A stretch of 6,146 bases of DNA from a virus (Duplodnaviria > Heunggongvirae > Uroviricota > Caudoviricetes). The stretch lies in IMG/VR virus record IMGVR_UViG_2617270975_000012, positions 1-6,146 of that record. One strand, written 5' to 3'. The translations under genes were made by a program, and so were the position numbers. The notes below the pieces were generated by a model, which was given only the letters and a program-made list of their open reading frames with translations, did no database searches and had not been told where the DNA came from. Of the stretch, positions 1-6,146 are shown in pieces. The first letter of the stretch is position 1. Every line of letters starts with the position of its first letter.

Positions 1-96
1 AAGGTGCACCTTACTCCGGCTCAGTTATCCATGCTTCTTGAAGGTATCAACTGGAAGCACCCGAAACGAACGGAACGCGCTGGAATCCGCATATAA
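1..96 (+). CDS. tnpB: IS66-family TnpB (orf2), C-terminal fragment; 5' end outside window
   Basis: Frame 1 is open from position 1 and translates KVHLTPAQLSMLLEGINWKHPKRTERAGIRI before TAA at 94..96. It ends 19 bp before the tnpC ATG, matching tnpA-tnpB-tnpC order. Family assignment is from recall of TnpB C-termini, not a search. Confidence 0.55.
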   Translation, partial: KVHLTPAQLSMLLEGINWKHPKRTERAGIRI

Positions 97-115
97 CCCG
101 TTGTAAAGTGAGGAT

Positions 116-1687
116 ATGGACACCTCACTTGCTCATGAGAACGCCCGCCTGCGGGCACTGTTGCAGACGCAACAGGACACCATCCGCCAGATGGCTGAAT
201 ACAACCGCCTGCTCTCACAGCGGGTGGCGGCTTATGCTTCCGAAATCAACCGGCTGAAGGCGCTGGTTGCGAAACTGCAACGTATGCAGTTCGGTAAAAG
301 CTCAGAAAAACTTCGTGCAAAAACCGAACGGCAGATACAGGAAGCACAGGAGCGAATCAGCGCACTTCAGGAAGAAATGGCGGAAACGCTGGGTGAGCAA
401 TATGACCCGGTACTGCCATCCGCCCTGCGCCAGTCTTCAGCCCGTAAACCGTTACCGGCCTCACTTCCCCGTGAAACCCGGGTTATCCGGCCGGAAGAGG
501 AATGCTGTCCTGCCTGTGGTGGTGAACTCAGTTCTCTGGGATGTGATGTGTCAGAGCAACTGGAGCTTATCAGCAGCGCCTTTAAGGTTATCGAAACACA
601 ACGTCCGAAACAGGCCTGTTGCCGGTGCGACCATATCGTGCAGGCACCAGTACCTTCAAAACCCATTGCACGCAGTTATGCCGGAGCGGGGCTTCTGGCC
701 CATGTTGTCACCGGGAAATATGCAGACCATCTGCCGTTATACCGCCAGTCAGAAATATACCGTCGTCAGGGAGTGGAGCTGAGCCGTGCCACACTGGGGC
801 GCTGGACAGGTGCTGTTGCTGAACTGCTGGAGCCGCTGTATGACGTCCTGCGCCAGTATGTGCTGATGCCCGGTAAAGTCCATGCTGATGATATCCCCGT
901 CCCGGTCCAGGAGCCGGGCAGCGGTAAAACCCGGACAGCCCGGCTGTGGGTCTACGTCCGTGATGACCGTAACGCCGGTTCACAGATGCCCCCGGCGGTC
1001 TGGTTCGCGTACAGTCCGGACCGGAAAGGTATCCATCCACAAAATCACCTGGCCGGTTACAGCGGTGTGCTTCAGGCCGATGCTTACGGTGGTTACCGGG
1101 CGTTATACGAATCCGGCAGAATAACGGAAGCCGCGTGTATGGCTCATGCCCGGAGAAAAATCCACGATGTGCATGCAAGAGCGCCCACCTACATCACCAC
1201 GGAAGCCCTGCAGCGTATCGGTGAACTGTATGCCATCGAGGCAGAGGTCCGGGGCTGTTCAGCAGAACAGCGTCTGGCGGCAAGAAAAGCCAGAGCCGCG
1301 CCACTGATGCAGTCACTGTATGACTGGATACAGCAACAGATGAAAACACTGTCGCGTCACTCAGATACGGCAAAAGCGTTCGCATACCTGCTGAAACAGT
1401 GGGATGCACTGAACGTGTACTGCAGTAATGGCTGGGTGGAAATCGACAACAACATCGCAGAGAACGCCTTACGGGGAGTGGCCGTAGGCCGGAAAAACTG
1501 GATGTTCGCGGGTTCCAACAGCGGTGGTGAACATGCGGCGGTGTTGTACTCGCTGATCGGCACATGCCGTCTGAACAATGTGGAGCCAGAAAAGTGGCTG
1601 CGTTACGTCATTGAACATATCCAGGACTGGCCGGCAAACCGGGTACGCGATCTGTTGCCCTGGAAAGTTGATCTGAGCTCTCAGTAA
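116..1687 (+). CDS. tnpC: IS66-family transposase TnpC (orf3), 523 aa
   Basis: Full-length ORF. N-terminal heptad-rich coiled coil/leucine zipper (aa ~8-90), CxxC...CxC zinc-finger-like motif (EECCPACGG...QACCRCDH, aa 130-171), and DDE-type core candidates ([26 protein letters not shown]). First in-frame ATG after a stop at 104..106; GAGG at 110..113. Confidence 0.93.
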
Positions 1688-1690
1688 ATA

Positions 1691-1717
1691 TCAATACGGT
1701 TCTGACGAGTCGCTTAC
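1691..1717 (+). repeat. IS66-family terminal inverted repeat (tnpC-proximal end)
   Basis: Last ~27 bp of the repeated block, directly after the tnpC stop; ends ...CGCTTAC (complement GTAAGCG). Repeat identity stops exactly at 1717. IR length is an estimate. Confidence 0.6.
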
Positions 1718-1723
1718 GGAGGA

Positions 1724-2074
1724 ATGGCAATATCTGCAGGTCGTCTGACACAGATGATAAGTGTTCTGAAGCCGGTGTTAACCCGTAATGCTGCCGGAGA
1801 AATGACGGAAGAATGGGTGTCATGCGGGAAAATTCATGCGGATATCCGTGGCAGGAGCAGCCGGGAGCGGATGCAGTCCGGTGCGGAAATGGCGCAGGCG
1901 GAAATCCGCATCTGGGTGCGCGGTCAGTCCGGCCGGGAAATCACGGCAGCGTCACGACTTCATGTGCTGAGTGGTCCATGGCGTGACCGGATCCTGAACG
2001 TTGTCGGGCTGCCCGTGCCGGATGCGACCGGCGGGCGTCTGGAAATTCTCTGTCGGCTGGGAGGGGAAAAATGA
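1724..2074 (+). CDS. Phage head-tail adaptor / head closure (stopper) protein, Phage_H_T_join-like, 116 aa
   Basis: N-terminal M..AGRL motif, central AQAEIRIWVR block and C-terminal LEILCR are typical of head-tail joining proteins. Size and position, directly upstream of an HK97-gp10-like gene, fit. GGAGG at 1718..1722 is only 1 nt from the ATG; in-frame stop at 1703..1705 prevents upstream extension. Confidence 0.72.
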   Translation: MAISAGRLTQMISVLKPVLTRNAAGEMTEEWVSCGKIHADIRGRSSRERMQSGAEMAQAEIRIWVRGQSGREITAASRLHVLSGPWRDRILNVVGLPVPDATGGRLEILCRLGGEK

Positions 2075-2517
2075 TCGAAACCCTGCTGGATTTTTCGGGG
2101 CTGGAGGACATCAGCCGCGATTTGCAGCTTCTGAGTGGTGCGGAAAATAACCGGGTGCTGCGTGAGGCAACCCGTGCGGGTGCGAATGTGCTGAAAGAAG
2201 AAGTGGTGTCACGGGCACCGGTACGCAGGGGAAAACTGCGCCGCAATGTGGTGGTCCTTTCCCGGCGCTCCCGCGATGGCGGGATGGAATCCGGTGTGCA
2301 TATCCGGGGTGTTAATCCGGACACCGGTAACAGCGATAACACCATGAAGGCGGATAACCCGCGCAATGCTTTCTACTGGCGGTTTGTGGAAATGGGGACC
2401 GTGAATATGCCACCGCACCCGTTTGTGCGCCCGGCATTTGATGTGCGCAGTGAACAGGCGGCACAGGTGGCGATTGCGCGGATGAACCGGGCCATTGATG
2501 AGGTACTGAGACGATGA
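2071..2517 (+). CDS. HK97 gp10-family phage tail component (tail completion / neck protein), 148 aa
   Basis: RAPVRRGKLRR and FVEMGT..MPP.PFVRPAFD motifs match the HK97-gp10 family signature. Start overlaps the upstream stop (ATGA at 2071..2074). Confidence 0.78.
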   Translation: MIETLLDFSGLEDISRDLQLLSGAENNRVLREATRAGANVLKEEVVSRAPVRRGKLRRNVVVLSRRSRDGGMESGVHIRGVNPDTGNSDNTMKADNPRNAFYWRFVEMGTVNMPPHPFVRPAFDVRSEQAAQVAIARMNRAIDEVLRR

Positions 2518-2858
2518 CGGAGGCGGATTTGTATCCTCATCTGGCGCATCTTGCCGGCGGGCAGGTGTACCCGTATGTGGTCCCCCTGCTGGATGGCAGG
2601 CCGTCGGTGGCGCTTCCGTGGGTGGTTTTCAGCCTGATTTCATCGGTGTCTGCGGACGTGATGGGCGGGCAGGCGGAGTCCTCAGTGTCGGTGCAGATCG
2701 ACGTTTATGCCGGGACTGTGACGCAGGCGCGTCAGATACGTCAGGACGCCCGTGAAGCCATAATGCTGCTGGCCCCGGGATCCGTCAGTGAAATGCAGGA
2801 CTATATTCCGGAAAACCGCTGTTACCGTGCAACCCTGGAGTTTCAGGTCACGGTGTGA
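2514..2858 (+). CDS. DUF3168-like phage tail terminator / tail completion protein, 114 aa
   Basis: LYPHL...VYPYVVP...PWVVFSLIS...VQIDVY...AREAI pattern resembles DUF3168 proteins found between gp10-like and major tail genes. ATGA overlap with the upstream gene at 2514..2517. Confidence 0.62.
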   Translation: MTEADLYPHLAHLAGGQVYPYVVPLLDGRPSVALPWVVFSLISSVSADVMGGQAESSVSVQIDVYAGTVTQARQIRQDAREAIMLLAPGSVSEMQDYIPENRCYRATLEFQVTV

Positions 2859-2876
2859 CTTTTTCTTTTTTTCTAC

Positions 2877-2908
2877 AAAACCCATACCCCGCCGCGTGCG
2901 GGTTTTTT
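2877..2908 (+). terminator. Putative intrinsic terminator/attenuator between the tail terminator and major tail protein genes
   Basis: A-tract 2877..2880, GC stem CCCGC (2888..2892) / GCGGG (2898..2902) with 5-nt loop, then TTTTTT at 2903..2908. Preceded by a weaker hairpin GTCAC-GGT-GTGAC (2847..2859) plus a T-rich run (2860..2873). Confidence 0.45.
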
Positions 2909-2914
2909 ATTATC

Positions 2915-2920
2915 AGGAGG
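2915..2920 (+). promoter_or_regulatory. Shine-Dalgarno (AGGAGG) of the major tail protein gene
   Basis: Perfect AGGAGG 4 nt upstream of the ATG at 2925. Confidence 0.6.
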
Positions 2921-2924
2921 CAGA

Positions 2925-3641
2925 ATGTCTGCTTTGTATGAACGCTCACAGCTGACGCAGGTGATGATTTCATCTGCCCCGGCGACTGCTGAAACTATGG
3001 ATAAGGCGGAATATCTGCGCCTGGACTGCACCATCAAGGAAGTCCAGTTCACCGCCGGTCAGAAACAGGATATTGATGTGACCACGCTCTGCTCCACAGA
3101 GCAGGAGAACATCAACGGTCTGGGGGCGTCGTCTGAGATTTCCATGTCGGGTAATTTTTATCTGAATCAGGCCCAGAACGCCCTGCGTGATGCCTATGAC
3201 AATGACGCGTTGTATGCGTTTAAGGTGCTGTTTCCGTCCGGTAAGGGCTTTAAGTTCCTGGCGGAAGTGCGTCAGCACACCTGGTCATCCGGTACCAACG
3301 GCGTGGTGGCAGCAACGTTTTCACTGCGTATGAAAGGCAAACCGGTGTCCTTTGTGGTACCGCTGGCGTTTGTGAAAAATCTGGATAAAACACTTACCGT
3401 GAATACAGGTGCGCTGCTGACAATGTCAGTCAGTGCCAACGGGGGAACGCCGCCGTATAAATACGCCTGGAAGAAGGATGGTCAGCCGGTTGACGGGCAG
3501 ACGACAGACACCTTCAGTAAGCCAGGTGCGCAGTCCGCTGATGCGGGGAAATATACCTGCGTGGTGACCGATTCGGCAGAGAAAGCACAGAGTGTGACGT
3601 CTGTTGAATGCACCGTGACAGTGAGCGCAGCCGCCGGATAA
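2925..3641 (+). CDS. Phage major tail (tube) protein with C-terminal Ig-like domain, 238 aa
   Basis: Position after the adaptor/gp10/terminator genes and before the chaperone pair; strong SD. C-terminal ~85 aa (nt ~3370..3638) has Ig-fold-like features (alternating beta pattern, W, Y.C in GKYTCVVTD), as commonly appended to siphovirus tail tube proteins. Confidence 0.72.
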   Translation: MSALYERSQLTQVMISSAPATAETMDKAEYLRLDCTIKEVQFTAGQKQDIDVTTLCSTEQENINGLGASSEISMSGNFYLNQAQNALRDAYDNDALYAFKVLFPSGKGFKFLAEVRQHTWSSGTNGVVAATFSLRMKGKPVSFVVPLAFVKNLDKTLTVNTGALLTMSVSANGGTPPYKYAWKKDGQPVDGQTTDTFSKPGAQSADAGKYTCVVTDSAEKAQSVTSVECTVTVSAAAG

Positions 3642-3655
3642 GGGGATGGGTCATC

Positions 3656-4030
3656 ATGAAAAAGGATCTGAAAACGCTGGCGCTGGCCAGACTGTCAGGG
3701 TTTCGTCATAAAACGGTGAAGGTGCCGGAATGGGGTAATGTCAGCGTGGTGCTGCGGGAGCCTTCGGCAGAGGCCTGGTATCTGTGGCAGGAAGTGCTCA
3801 ATGGTGATGGAGAGGATGACGATACCCTGTCGGTGGTGGCGAAAACCCGCCGTAACCTGGAAGCGGATGTGACGCTGTTCTGCGATGTCCTGTGTGATAC
3901 TGACCTGCAACGGGTGTTCACTCCGGACGACCGTGAGCAGGTGCTGGCCGTCTATGGTCCGGTACATGCCCGGTTGCTGCGTCAGGCACTGGAACTGATC
4001 GCTGATGCAGAGTCGGCCAGAAAAAAGTAG
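3656..4030 (+). CDS. Tail assembly chaperone (lambda gpG-like), 124 aa
   Basis: Start chosen at ATG 3656 (GGGGA at 3642..3646), not the ORF-track start 3608, which overlaps the major tail gene. Acidic small protein immediately after the major tail gene, ending in a slippery site followed by a -1-frame ORF, the hallmark G/GT arrangement. Confidence 0.7.
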   Translation: MKKDLKTLALARLSGFRHKTVKVPEWGNVSVVLREPSAEAWYLWQEVLNGDGEDDDTLSVVAKTRRNLEADVTLFCDVLCDTDLQRVFTPDDREQVLAVYGPVHARLLRQALELIADAESARKK

Positions 4031-4335
4031 CCCGCCCGGAAATTCGCTTTCTGATGCGACTTGCGCTCCGTCTGGGGCGCACCTTATCCGAACTGCGGCA
4101 CAGCCTGAGTGCGAGCGAGGCGATGATGTGGATGGAGTTTGACAGGGTGTCCCCGCTGGGTGATGAGCGCGGGGATATCCGTAATGCACAGATCGTGAAA
4201 GCGGTTTTCGGGGCACAGGGGATGAATGTTGCACTGAAGGACGCCATGCTCTGCTGGGGCGAGGATGAGGATAAGCCGGAGGTGGATCCGTTTGCGGCGC
4301 TGGAAGACGCGCTGAGCTTTGCAGCACAGTCATGA
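3656..4335 (+). CDS. Tail assembly chaperone G-T fusion via -1 frameshift (join 3656..4027, 4027..4335), about 226 aa
   Basis: The -1 frame after the slippery site is continuous with ORF-track 4054..4335 (MRLALRLGRTLSELRHSL..., gpT-like). Conserved G/GT frameshift arrangement of long-tailed phages. Confidence 0.62.
4021..4027 (+). other. Programmed -1 ribosomal frameshift slippery heptamer A_AAA_AAG
   Basis: Zero-frame codons AGA AAA AAG TAG at 4019..4030. The -1 frame from 4027 reads GTA GCC CGC CCG GAA ATT CGC TTT CTG ATG... with no stop through 4335. Confidence 0.65.
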
Positions 4336-4343
4336 ATGATGAG

Positions 4344-4364
4344 AACCGCTGAGGCGGTTTTTTT
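4344..4364 (+). terminator. Terminator-like hairpin downstream of the T segment
   Basis: Stem AACCGC (4344..4349) / GCGGTT (4354..4359), loop TGAG, T-run 4358..4364. Lies 9 bp after the G-T stop at 4333..4335. Confidence 0.4.
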
Positions 4365-4382
4365 ACGCCCGGAGAAAGGTGA

Positions 4383-4433
4383 ATGGCGACGTTACGTGAA
4401 CTGATTATCAAAATTTCGGCAAATTCACAGTAA
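4383..4433 (+). pseudogene. Truncated 5' end of a probable tail tape-measure gene (16 codons), interrupted by the IS66 terminus
   Basis: GGAGA at 4371..4375, ATG at 4383, MATLRELIIKISANSQ, then in-frame TAA at 4431..4433 supplied by the IS terminus starting at 4430. Identity as tape measure is inferred from position after G/GT only. Confidence 0.4.
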
Positions 4434-4456
4434 GCGACTCGTCAGAACCGTATTGA
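4430..4456 (-). repeat. IS66-family terminal inverted repeat (tnpC-proximal end) of the second copy
   Basis: Mirror of 1691..1717; GTAAGCG at 4430..4436. Confidence 0.6.
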
Positions 4457-4459
4457 TAT

Positions 4460-6031
4460 TTACTGAGAGCTCAGATCAACTTTCCAGGGCAACAGATCGC
4501 GTACCCGGTTTGCCGGCCAGTCCTGGATATGTTCAATGACGTAACGCAGCCACTTTTCTGGCTCCACATTGTTCAGACGGCATGTGCCGATCAGCGAGTA
4601 CAACACCGCCGCATGTTCACCACCGCTGTTGGAACCCGCGAACATCCAGTTTTTCCGGCCTACGGCCACTCCCCGTAAGGCGTTCTCTGCGATGTTGTTG
4701 TCGATTTCCACCCAGCCATTACTGCAGTACACGTTCAGTGCATCCCACTGTTTCAGCAGGTATGCGAACGCTTTTGCCGTATCTGAGTGACGCGACAGTG
4801 TTTTCATCTGTTGCTGTATCCAGTCATACAGTGACTGCATCAGTGGCGCGGCTCTGGCTTTTCTTGCCGCCAGACGCTGTTCTGCTGAACAGCCCCGGAC
4901 CTCTGCCTCGATGGCATACAGTTCACCGATACGCTGCAGGGCTTCCGTGGTGATGTAGGTGGGCGCTCTTGCATGCACATCGTGGATTTTTCTCCGGGCA
5001 TGAGCCATACACGCGGCTTCCGTTATTCTGCCGGATTCGTATAACGCCCGGTAACCACCGTAAGCATCGGCCTGAAGCACACCGCTGTAACCGGCCAGGT
5101 GATTTTGTGGATGGATACCTTTCCGGTCCGGACTGTACGCGAACCAGACCGCCGGGGGCATCTGTGAACCGGCGTTACGGTCATCACGGACGTAGACCCA
5201 CAGCCGGGCTGTCCGGGTTTTACCGCTGCCCGGCTCCTGGACCGGGACGGGGATATCATCAGCATGGACTTTACCGGGCATCAGCACATACTGGCGCAGG
5301 ACGTCATACAGCGGCTCCAGCAGTTCAGCAACAGCACCTGTCCAGCGCCCCAGTGTGGCACGGCTCAGCTCCACTCCCTGACGACGGTATATTTCTGACT
5401 GGCGGTATAACGGCAGATGGTCTGCATATTTCCCGGTGACAACATGGGCCAGAAGCCCCGCTCCGGCATAACTGCGTGCAATGGGTTTTGAAGGTACTGG
5501 TGCCTGCACGATATGGTCGCACCGGCAACAGGCCTGTTTCGGACGTTGTGTTTCGATAACCTTAAAGGCGCTGCTGATAAGCTCCAGTTGCTCTGACACA
5601 TCACATCCCAGAGAACTGAGTTCACCACCACAGGCAGGACAGCATTCCTCTTCCGGCCGGATAACCCGGGTTTCACGGGGAAGTGAGGCCGGTAACGGTT
5701 TACGGGCTGAAGACTGGCGCAGGGCGGATGGCAGTACCGGGTCATATTGCTCACCCAGCGTTTCCGCCATTTCTTCCTGAAGTGCGCTGATTCGCTCCTG
5801 TGCTTCCTGTATCTGCCGTTCGGTTTTTGCACGAAGTTTTTCTGAGCTTTTACCGAACTGCATACGTTGCAGTTTCGCAACCAGCGCCTTCAGCCGGTTG
5901 ATTTCGGAAGCATAAGCCGCCACCCGCTGTGAGAGCAGGCGGTTGTATTCAGCCATCTGGCGGATGGTGTCCTGTTGCGTCTGCAACAGTGCCCGCAGGC
6001 GGGCGTTCTCATGAGCAAGTGAGGTGTCCAT
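4460..6031 (-). CDS. tnpC: IS66-family transposase TnpC (orf3), 523 aa, second copy
   Basis: ORF translation is identical to 116..1687. Confidence 0.93.
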
Positions 6032-6050
6032 ATCCTCACTTTACAACGGG

Positions 6051-6146
6051 TTATATGCGGATTCCAGCGCGTTCCGTTCGTTTCGGGTGCTTCCAGTTGA
6101 TACCTTCAAGAAGCATGGATAACTGAGCCGGAGTAAGGTGCACCTT
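6051..6146 (-). CDS. tnpB: IS66-family TnpB (orf2), C-terminal fragment, second copy; 5' end outside window
   Basis: Mirror of 1..96. Confidence 0.55.
   Translation of the reverse strand, partial: KVHLTPAQLSMLLEGINWKHPKRTERAGIRI

Follow-up and report, generated by a model that had tools for sequence, protein, structure and literature searches.

Two right ends of the insertion sequence ISCro1 face inward across a 2,712-bp block of phage tail genes in the window, that is, the whole 6,146-nt stretch of DNA analysed here. A decaying prophage whose block is bounded by these two ends, with arms that were collapsed or trimmed, is likely to be the full explanation of the window (probability about 0.78). 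The inverted repeat as a whole is real, known and ordinary, and an IS-flanked prophage fragment of this kind is already known.

Geometry of the Inverted Repeat

Direct comparison of the window arms showed that positions 4430–6146 are the exact reverse complement of positions 1–1717, with 0 mismatches. The arrangement described in the original prediction, two reverse-complementary segments around a 2712-bp module, was thus confirmed, and nucleotide alignment of the two copies revealed no divergence over 1,717 nt. The first mismatch between the arms occurs at position 1718, and the unique centre spans 1718–4429 (2,712 bp). Automated repeat finding had returned an arm of 1,728 nt, an ungapped over-extension running 11 bases into non-matching sequence. 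A perfect inverted repeat of 1,717 nt is far beyond chance, and the IS itself is the only long inverted repeat in the window. The left inner junction, between positions 1717 and 1718, reads ...GAGTCGCTTAC/GGAGG, and the right inner junction, between 4429 and 4430, reads ...ATTCACA/GTAAGCGACTC; both are genuine junctions of an IS terminus with phage DNA.

ISCro1 Arms

ISCro1 belongs to the IS66 family; it was first described in Citrobacter rodentium and occurs widely in E. coli and on E. coli plasmids. The left arm (1–1717, plus strand) is the right-hand 1,717 bp of an ISCro1-type element, IS coordinates 983–2699 of 2,699 bp, and the right arm (4430–6146, minus strand) is the same 1,717 bp in the opposite orientation. 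The window covers just the right-hand 64% of each copy; the left 982 bp, with tnpA and most of tnpB, fall outside it. The arm differs from full copies in complete genomes by 1–2 mismatches in 1,717 nt.

Of the three-gene IS66 layout, the window holds the last 96 nt of tnpB (1–96, plus strand, the last 31 codons plus stop; 6051–6146, minus strand, in the right arm) and all of tnpC (116–1687, plus strand; 4460–6031, minus strand), whereas tnpA, tnpB and tnpC are all carried by the near-identical full copies L002, L003 and L015–L023. The complete tnpC gene encodes a 523-aa IS66-family DDE transposase of the N468 allele. All four IS66 Pfam domains are present in TnpC (LZ_Tnp_IS66, zf-IS66, DDE_Tnp_IS66 at 345 bits and DDE_Tnp_IS66_C), and it scores 476.6 bits against the NCBIfam equivalog NF033517, for which the cut-off is 180. 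The RefSeq name of the protein is 'IS66-like element ISCro1 family transposase', and 3,675 index blocks contain the exact sequence.

The right terminal inverted repeat (1691–1717, plus strand; about 4430–4456, minus strand, in the right arm) has an approximate extent of ~27 bp and ends ...GAGTCGCTTAC. Imperfect terminal repeats of the IS66 type, beginning with GTAA, are present: the reverse complement of the right end, GTAAGCGACTC..., is found at both inner junctions, and the left end, read in a full copy outside the window, begins GTAACCGGCTC.... The terminus was checked independently: two complete genomes carry the 2,699-bp element with identical terminal bases and with 8-bp target duplications on its flanks. 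Duplications of 8 bp accompany the same element in L002, L003, L026, L027, L030, L031, L034, L035, L036 and L037. An independent report of ISCro1 as 2,699 bp long with an 8-bp duplication agrees with the length found here (PMC12115866). Both the domain matches and the terminus agree with the earlier reading of the arms as IS66-family copies with GTAAGCG ends pointing inward around a phage tail block.

Phage Block Between the Arms

The 2,712-bp centre matches a lambdoid prophage of E. coli S1-IND-01-A (L001, 6001–8712) with 0 mismatches and in native gene order. Compared with the Stx1a-converting phage Stx1_14744 and phage YYZ-2008, nucleotide identity is 99.1–99.5% over the whole 2.7 kb. The block is conserved, with at least 80% coverage in 1,236 genomes, many of them at 99% identity or more.

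The order of a lambdoid siphovirus module is present on the plus strand: head closure, gp10-like, tail completion, major tail, G, T and tape measure. The head-closure (head completion) protein gene (1724–2074) was assigned from Pfam Phage_HCP, TIGR01563 and the RefSeq annotation in L001. It is followed by genes for an HK97-gp10-family morphogenesis protein (2071–2517; Pfam and NCBIfam matches, prophage annotation) and the tail completion protein gp17 (2514–2858; Pfam match, prophage annotation). The major tail (tube) subunit gene (2925–3641), identified from the prophage annotation and Pfam, has a C-terminal Ig-like domain; Ig_3, Ig_2, I-set and Phage_tail_2 matched at or above the Pfam cut-offs, and Phage_TTP_11 below its cut-off. 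A lambda G-like tail assembly chaperone gene (3656–4030; Pfam Phage_TAC_1, 1e-61, and prophage annotation) precedes the reading frame of tail assembly protein T (4054–4335; Pfam Phage_tail_T and prophage annotation). The frameshift of lambda G/GT is the model for a G-T fusion. Here, an A AAA AAG heptamer (4021–4027) lies just 5' of the G stop codon, and three-frame translation showed that the −1 frame, that of T, passes through it uninterrupted, with the G and T frames overlapping there. The heptamer is therefore a likely candidate for a programmed −1 frameshift site yielding a G-T fusion. The block closes with 47 nt from the start of the tape-measure gene (4383–4429), at which point the IS interrupts the gene; translation of the stub gives MATLRELIIKISANSQ and then a stop, running into the IS.

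IS Junctions and Effect on the Prophage

The left junction is intergenic, between the stop codon of the head-tail connector gene and the start of the head-closure gene. The 8 bp adjoining the left IS end, GGAGGAAT (1718–1725, plus strand), contain the head-closure ribosome-binding site and would be the target duplication if the left copy is a simple insertion. At the right junction the tape-measure gene is interrupted 47 nt in, after its first 16 codons. The adjoining 8 bp, AATTCACA (4422–4429, plus strand), are the duplication predicted for a simple insertion of the right copy; this junction is ambiguous by 2 bp, since the phage continues with GT, which are also the first two bases of the IS. 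With its tape-measure gene truncated, the prophage cannot build a tail. The window is best explained as part of a decaying lambdoid prophage of E. coli in which the IS broke the late operon and destroyed the tape-measure gene.

L002 and L003 also carry this IS within the tail module, in either orientation. Searches of 5,426 complete E. coli genomes, PLSDB plasmids, INPHARED phages, IMG/VR, GTDB representatives and JGI metagenomes turned up neither junction of the window.

Perfect Identity and Symmetric Ends

Both ends of the window lie at IS coordinate 983. In assemblies from NCBI, Logan and ENA, at least 10 independent draft contigs have their start at IS coordinate 982/983 and run out through the IS right end into different flanks; one assembly contributes three such contigs. 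The 31-aa partial tnpB product that marks a start at 983 was present in 60 index blocks, compared with 0, 2 and 0 for three control starts. No SNP at position 982 that could cause the recurrent stop was seen among the full copies compared. Because so many independent draft contigs start at the same coordinate, the arms are probably one collapsed repeat written twice. Most simply, they are a single collapsed multi-copy IS sequence placed at both ends of the contig and identical by construction; in both, reading would have started at the same IS end and proceeded inward to a shared stopping point. The window itself would then be a whole draft contig. Trimming to the maximal perfect repeat is another possible source of the symmetry.

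The 100% identity and the symmetric ends are best put down to the way the sequence arose; they carry little information, and the age of the copies is not readable from either. The proposal that such identity implies recent transposition or gene conversion is not supported, as coordinate 983 is a recurrent start of draft contigs and the arms are most simply identical by construction. A practical caution follows: a symmetric, perfect repeat of a multi-copy IS at the ends of a sequence may be a single collapsed repeat, and such end repeats are not evidence for recent transposition, gene conversion or fold-back.

History of the IS Pair

Inverted ISCro1 pairs enclosing 0.3–3 kb of DNA are numerous in complete genomes. 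In p2RM9088 (L031), the copies are 100% identical and 2.9 kb apart with right ends inward; in pO103_129_1 (L034), right ends also face inward, 0.75 kb apart; in L030, left ends face inward, 1.2 kb apart. Both duplications are matched in each of these three pairs, which identifies them as independent double insertions. By contrast, reciprocally swapped 8-bp flanks surround an inverted 574-bp fragment of an S49 peptidase gene in the CFSAN018748 prophage (L024) and an inverted 304-bp tssF fragment in STEC388 (L025), and these two are IS-mediated inversions. Inversions thus make up two of the seven informative inverted pairs in complete genomes. In line with the suggestion that inverted copies can serve to invert the segment between them, these two loci show inverted copies of this IS taking part in inversions.

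In the proposed history, two separate ISCro1 insertions into one E. coli lambdoid prophage would have left copies facing each other, with GGAGGAAT and AATTCACA as the predicted duplications. In a variant of this history, the segment may also have been flipped, through recombination of one copy with the other or in a single intramolecular transposition step, with an outcome indistinguishable in the window. An inverted 2.7-kb block relative to the rest of the prophage, with the 8-bp duplications swapped between the copies, is possible though unlikely. It could arise from a single resident ISCro1 transposing intramolecularly to a nearby target or from RecA recombination between inverted copies; the same IS end facing inward on both sides is the expected product, and the same IS gave this outcome in L024 and L025. 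However, three other inverted pairs, among them L031 and L034, the two complete pairs whose right ends face inward, have matched duplications and are plain double insertions. The inner junctions and the set of short-read contigs are the same under both histories, so short reads cannot separate them, and the window lacks outer flank. Two simple insertions are most likely; with two of seven informative pairs inverted, they are only the more likely history.

The single-step form of the inversion, in which intramolecular transposition of a replicative type by one ISCro1 flipped the 2.7-kb block, is a slightly weaker candidate again. The 304-bp (tssF) and 574-bp (peptidase) inverted segments are so short that two independent hits hardly explain them. 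To our knowledge, the transposition chemistry of the IS66 family is poorly characterised. If true here, a one-step inversion would be a clue to the mechanism of the family and, together with L024 and L025, would point to local inversion as a routine activity of IS66-family elements.

Other explanations of the window fare worse than two insertions. An assembly mis-join is improbable: real junctions from different molecules would have been linked by one collapsed block threaded between them, the sources being two near-identical prophages in one genome, or two strains or subpopulations, with one insertion each. The frequent presence of several lambdoid prophages in Shiga-toxin-producing E. coli counts for a mis-join, as do the high conservation of the tail block and the collapsed-repeat appearance of the arms. 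A second context would, however, create a branch point at either end of the block; assemblers usually break off there, yet the contig runs through both. Moreover, neither single insertion is present in any of the 5,426 complete genomes. Far less credible is a composite transposon, in which the phage block would travel as one unit with the two ISCro1 copies, mobilised from their outer (left) ends. Inverted IS pairs are in principle capable of this, Tn5 and Tn10 being the models, and two IS copies do bracket a passenger here, as the arm comparison and inner junctions show. In plasmid L032, umuC is interrupted by an ISCro1-traX-uilS-finO-ISCro1 block, but its outer ends lack an 8-bp duplication. 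The block of the window is identical in sequence to its native prophage position, its cargo has no selectable function, and the unit was found in no further context among the 5,426 E. coli genomes, PLSDB, INPHARED, IMG/VR, GTDB and JGI collections. The proposal that the segment could move as a composite element thus found no support, as neither junction recurs in the genome, plasmid, phage and metagenome collections searched.

A fold-back or palindromic artefact of sequencing or assembly, with no biological counterpart, comes last in probability. The ends are perfectly symmetric, and bases 1–12 are a perfect 12-bp palindrome, AAGGTGCACCTT, on which the window both begins and ends. Yet the arms never meet: 2,712 bp of unique, asymmetric, non-palindromic phage sequence lie between them, matching an intact prophage in gene order and in every base, and the IS terminus coincides exactly with both breaks. 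A simple fold-back, a concern raised with the original prediction, is thereby ruled out. A recombinase-driven invertible switch was likewise rejected: neither a recombinase gene of the Gin/Cin/Hin type among the window ORFs and Pfam matches nor short crossover sites were found, the window lacks a serine invertase gene, and no long inverted repeat other than the IS is present.

The biological weight of the favoured reading, a prophage fragment bounded by two ISCro1 ends, is small, as it adds one more case of IS-driven decay of a lambdoid prophage.

Comparison with Known Systems

The tnpB-tnpC layout, the GTAAGCG... terminus and the IS66-domain TnpC are common to the arms and the 2,699-bp ISCro1 element; TnpC residue 468 is N here and D in the other copies compared, although the N468 allele itself is common. 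The gene order of the block is that of the tail modules of long-tailed prophages of the lambdoid and Stx-converting type. In phages of the Stx1_14744/YYZ-2008 type, the head-tail connector gene adjoins the block upstream and a tape-measure gene of 3.2 kb follows it downstream, whereas in the window both continuations are replaced by IS ends. The pairs in L031, L034, L024 and L025 consist of two full, opposite copies around 0.3–2.9 kb of host or phage DNA, and L031 has the same geometry as the window; unlike in the window, their outer flanks are known and their history is readable, and the target sites are all different. The likeness to the Mu Gin/G and P1 Cin/C segments is only superficial and consists of tail-related genes between inverted repeats. 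In the window, the repeats are 1.7-kb transposon arms with no invertase gene, and tube and chaperone genes with no alternative coding ends take the place of the fibre segments of Mu and P1.

Structure of the inverted repeat

Direct base comparison of the two arms showed that positions 4430–6146 are the exact reverse complement of window positions 1–1717, with no mismatch over the whole length. Identity first breaks at position 1718, leaving a unique centre of 2712 bp (1718–4429); the arm length of 1728 nt returned by a repeat finder was an over-extension of the 1717 nt obtained by direct comparison. At the left inner junction (1717/1718), the sequence ...GAGTCGCTTAC is joined to GGAGGAAT, and at the right inner junction (4429/4430), AATTCACA is joined to GTAAGCGACTC.... 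The original prediction had given these coordinates and described the inverted arms correctly, and the feature is real. A fold-back artefact, which it had also raised, was excluded: the arms do not meet, the 2712-bp spacer consists of asymmetric, intact phage DNA, and both breaks coincide with the IS terminus to the base.

ISCro1 arms

Each arm contains a complete tnpC gene (523 aa) and the final 31 codons of tnpB. Profile searches of TnpC revealed four IS66 Pfam domains and a match to NCBIfam NF033517, and identical or near-identical proteins are labelled in RefSeq as 'IS66-like element ISCro1 family transposase'. To set the bounds of the full element, the E. coli S1-IND-01-A prophage (L001), in which this phage module is uninterrupted, was compared with two complete genomes that have ISCro1 inserted there, CFSAN027343 (L002) and ES5 (L003). 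The total length obtained was 2699 bp, with the left terminus GTAACCGGCTC... and the right terminus GTAAGCGACTC..., and the target duplications around ISCro1 in L002 and L003 were of 8 bp (GTTTCAGG and CACAGCTG). An ISCro1 insertion reported previously was likewise 2699 bp long with an 8-bp duplication (PMC12115866). The window arms correspond to IS coordinates 983–2699; therefore, the genuine right end of the element is at 1717/4430, and neither copy has its left 982 bp inside the window.

Residue 468 of TnpC (window positions 1517 and 4630) is N in both arms and D in the nine other copies compared, a single G-to-A change. Its use as a rare tag for these copies was rejected, since the N468 protein is widespread, with 3675 index blocks listing the exact sequence. 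Separately, a 1.8-kb group II intron was observed within tnpC of a 96%-identical IS66 variant, at IS coordinate 2487/2488 (L004, 1507–3330; L008, about 1505–3321). It carries RVT_1 and GIIM domains and matches the Rfam families group-II-D1D4-2 and Intron_gpII.

Phage tail module

The gene order in the 2712-bp centre is head-closure, HK97-gp10-like, gp17 tail-completion, major tail subunit with a C-terminal Ig-like domain, chaperones G and T, and the start of the tape-measure gene. The centre showed 0 mismatches to the E. coli S1-IND-01-A prophage (L001, 6001–8712); among Stx-converting and related lambdoid phages, the top-ranked ones showed 99.1–99.5% identity to it. The left junction falls in the gap separating the stop of the head-tail connector gene from the head-closure start, while the right junction cuts the 3.2-kb tape-measure gene, of which the first 47 nt, about 16 codons, are kept (MATLRELIIKISANSQ*). 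No tail can be built by this prophage. An A AAA AAG heptamer at 4021–4027 lies directly 5' of the G chaperone stop, and the −1 frame, that of T, stays open across it; this is the expected position of a programmed frameshift site, predicted here to yield the G-T fusion chaperone.

Rfam and tRNA scans of the window gave no matches, and the result of the promoter/terminator scan of the window was no better than that for shuffled sequence. At 4338–4368, in the gap that separates the T gene from the start of the tape-measure gene, a T-run follows a GC-rich hairpin (AACCGC-TGAG-GCGGTT); this feature is terminator-like and was not reported by the terminator scan.

L002 and L003 each have one ISCro1 copy in this tail module; the two sites are about 100 bp apart, and the copies are oppositely oriented. 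Within the interval equivalent to window 2840–2954 (L001, 7123–7237), one site falls in the final codons of gp17 and the other in the opening codons of the major tail gene. The module seems to have been struck repeatedly by ISCro1. Matches H1–H5 of the whole-window search had resembled partial matches to the window structure, but each of those inspected (H1 and H4) proved to be a single ISCro1 insertion at a different site, where gp17 adjoins the major tail gene. Two terminator-like hairpins (2845–2861 and 2888–2902) were noted in or beside the gap between these genes.

Origin of the symmetric ends

A look-up was performed with the 31-aa TnpB fragment expected from gene calling at the first base of the window. 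The contigs retrieved came from Logan and ENA as well as from NCBI draft genomes, and all ten contigs shown begin at IS 982/983, three of them belonging to one assembly (GCA_002218525.2). Nine of the ten were compared base by base and exit through the right IS end into different unique flanks. The peptide occurred in 60 index blocks, compared with 0, 2 and 0 for control peptides starting one codon further in, at tnpC codon 11 and at tnpC codon 101, respectively. The window therefore begins and ends at a coordinate where contigs terminate recurrently. An assembler entering a collapsed repeat from the same end would halt at the same point on both sides and write identical sequence twice. No contig of 6146 bp was among those retrieved, and the window may instead have been trimmed to the maximal perfect repeat, which would be just as harmless. 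The exact match of the arms and the symmetry of the ends are thus most likely products of assembly or windowing and weak evidence on biology; recent transposition or gene conversion, as had been proposed, cannot be deduced from 100% identity.

Several causes of the stop at IS 983 were considered. The outer edge of each arm is a perfect 12-bp palindrome, AAGGTGCACCTT (window 1–12 and 6135–6146; IS 983–994). A real fold-back at this palindrome was rejected, being absent from all complete genomes. No SNP was present at 982 among the copies compared (nearest variable sites 796 and 1072), which excludes a SNP fork for these copies, and a 600-bp query spanning IS 983 gave no sign of a mosaic boundary. 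IMG/VR proviruses hold truncated ISCro1 copies ending within about 40 bp of the window start coordinate, at IS 942 (L040 and L055, IS 942–2699, adjoining a cold-shock-like gene) or at about 978–983 (L090). These were also rejected as the cause, since they carry a difference at 977, which predicts a halt at 978 and not at 983. Our guess is that chimeric fold-back reads forming at the palindrome, made visible by the IS copy number, explain the stop.

History of the arrangement

The same IS end facing inward on both sides is the product of double insertion and of inversion alike. When the products of both histories were worked through, the 8-bp target sequences at the segment ends and the outer junctions were identical. 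Consequently, short reads cannot tell the two apart, and only linkage across a whole IS separates them. Complete genomes with ISCro1 pairs were used as analogues. Inspection of matches H6–H30 did not support uniformly right-ends-inward pairs: in some pairs the left ends face inward, in others the right ends do, and further matches are nested IS-in-IS insertions (L027, L035 and L037).

We consider double insertion likelier than inversion, at roughly 2:1. Under this reading, two simple ISCro1 insertions would have entered a native-order prophage, with the predicted duplications GGAGGAAT and AATTCACA matched per copy. Independent insertions with both 8-bp duplications matched were found in L031 (100% identical copies whose right ends face each other across 2.9 kb), L034 (same orientation, 0.75 kb) and L030 (left ends inward, 1.2 kb), which argues against the less probable alternative that the 2.7-kb block was flipped by an IS-mediated event. 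That alternative has its own precedents, as reciprocally swapped duplications mark ISCro1-mediated inversions in L024 (3004–8975; an inverted 574-bp fragment of a prophage S49 peptidase gene) and L025 (3001–8702; an inverted 304-bp fragment of tssF). The shortness of the spacers at these two loci points to local inversion in one step and away from a pair of independent insertions. This hints that ISCro1 may make local one-step inversions. The inverted pairs in L032 and L033 were assigned to neither the matched nor the swapped class.

Comparison with known mobile and invertible systems

The search for the junctions used exact 33–34-nt strings for IMG/VR, GTDB representative genomes and JGI metagenomes; for complete E. 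coli genomes, plasmids and phages, it used 120-nt queries together with the whole window. Neither IS/phage junction was found in 5426 complete E. coli genomes, plasmids, phages, IMG/VR, GTDB representatives or JGI metagenome contigs. Mobilisation as a composite element had been proposed; the block is identical to native prophage sequence, its junctions occur nowhere else among the collections searched, and nothing indicates movement. The one plasmid with a composite-like arrangement is p14EC029e (L032, 2019–9888), where umuC is split by ISCro1-traX-uilS-finO-ISCro1 with right ends inward. Despite this appearance, its outer 8-bp flanks do not match and form no duplication, and its history is therefore more complex.

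RecA-mediated flipping can act on inverted 2.7-kb repeats. Homologous recombination mediated by ISCro1 has been documented (PMC12115866). For a block already severed from its operon, flipping would be functionally silent. Local one-step inversion by ISCro1 is the sole mildly novel reading; otherwise, the window combines a known element (ISCro1), known behaviour and a known prophage module. It differs from a Gin/Cin-type switch, as it contains neither an invertase gene nor short crossover sites.
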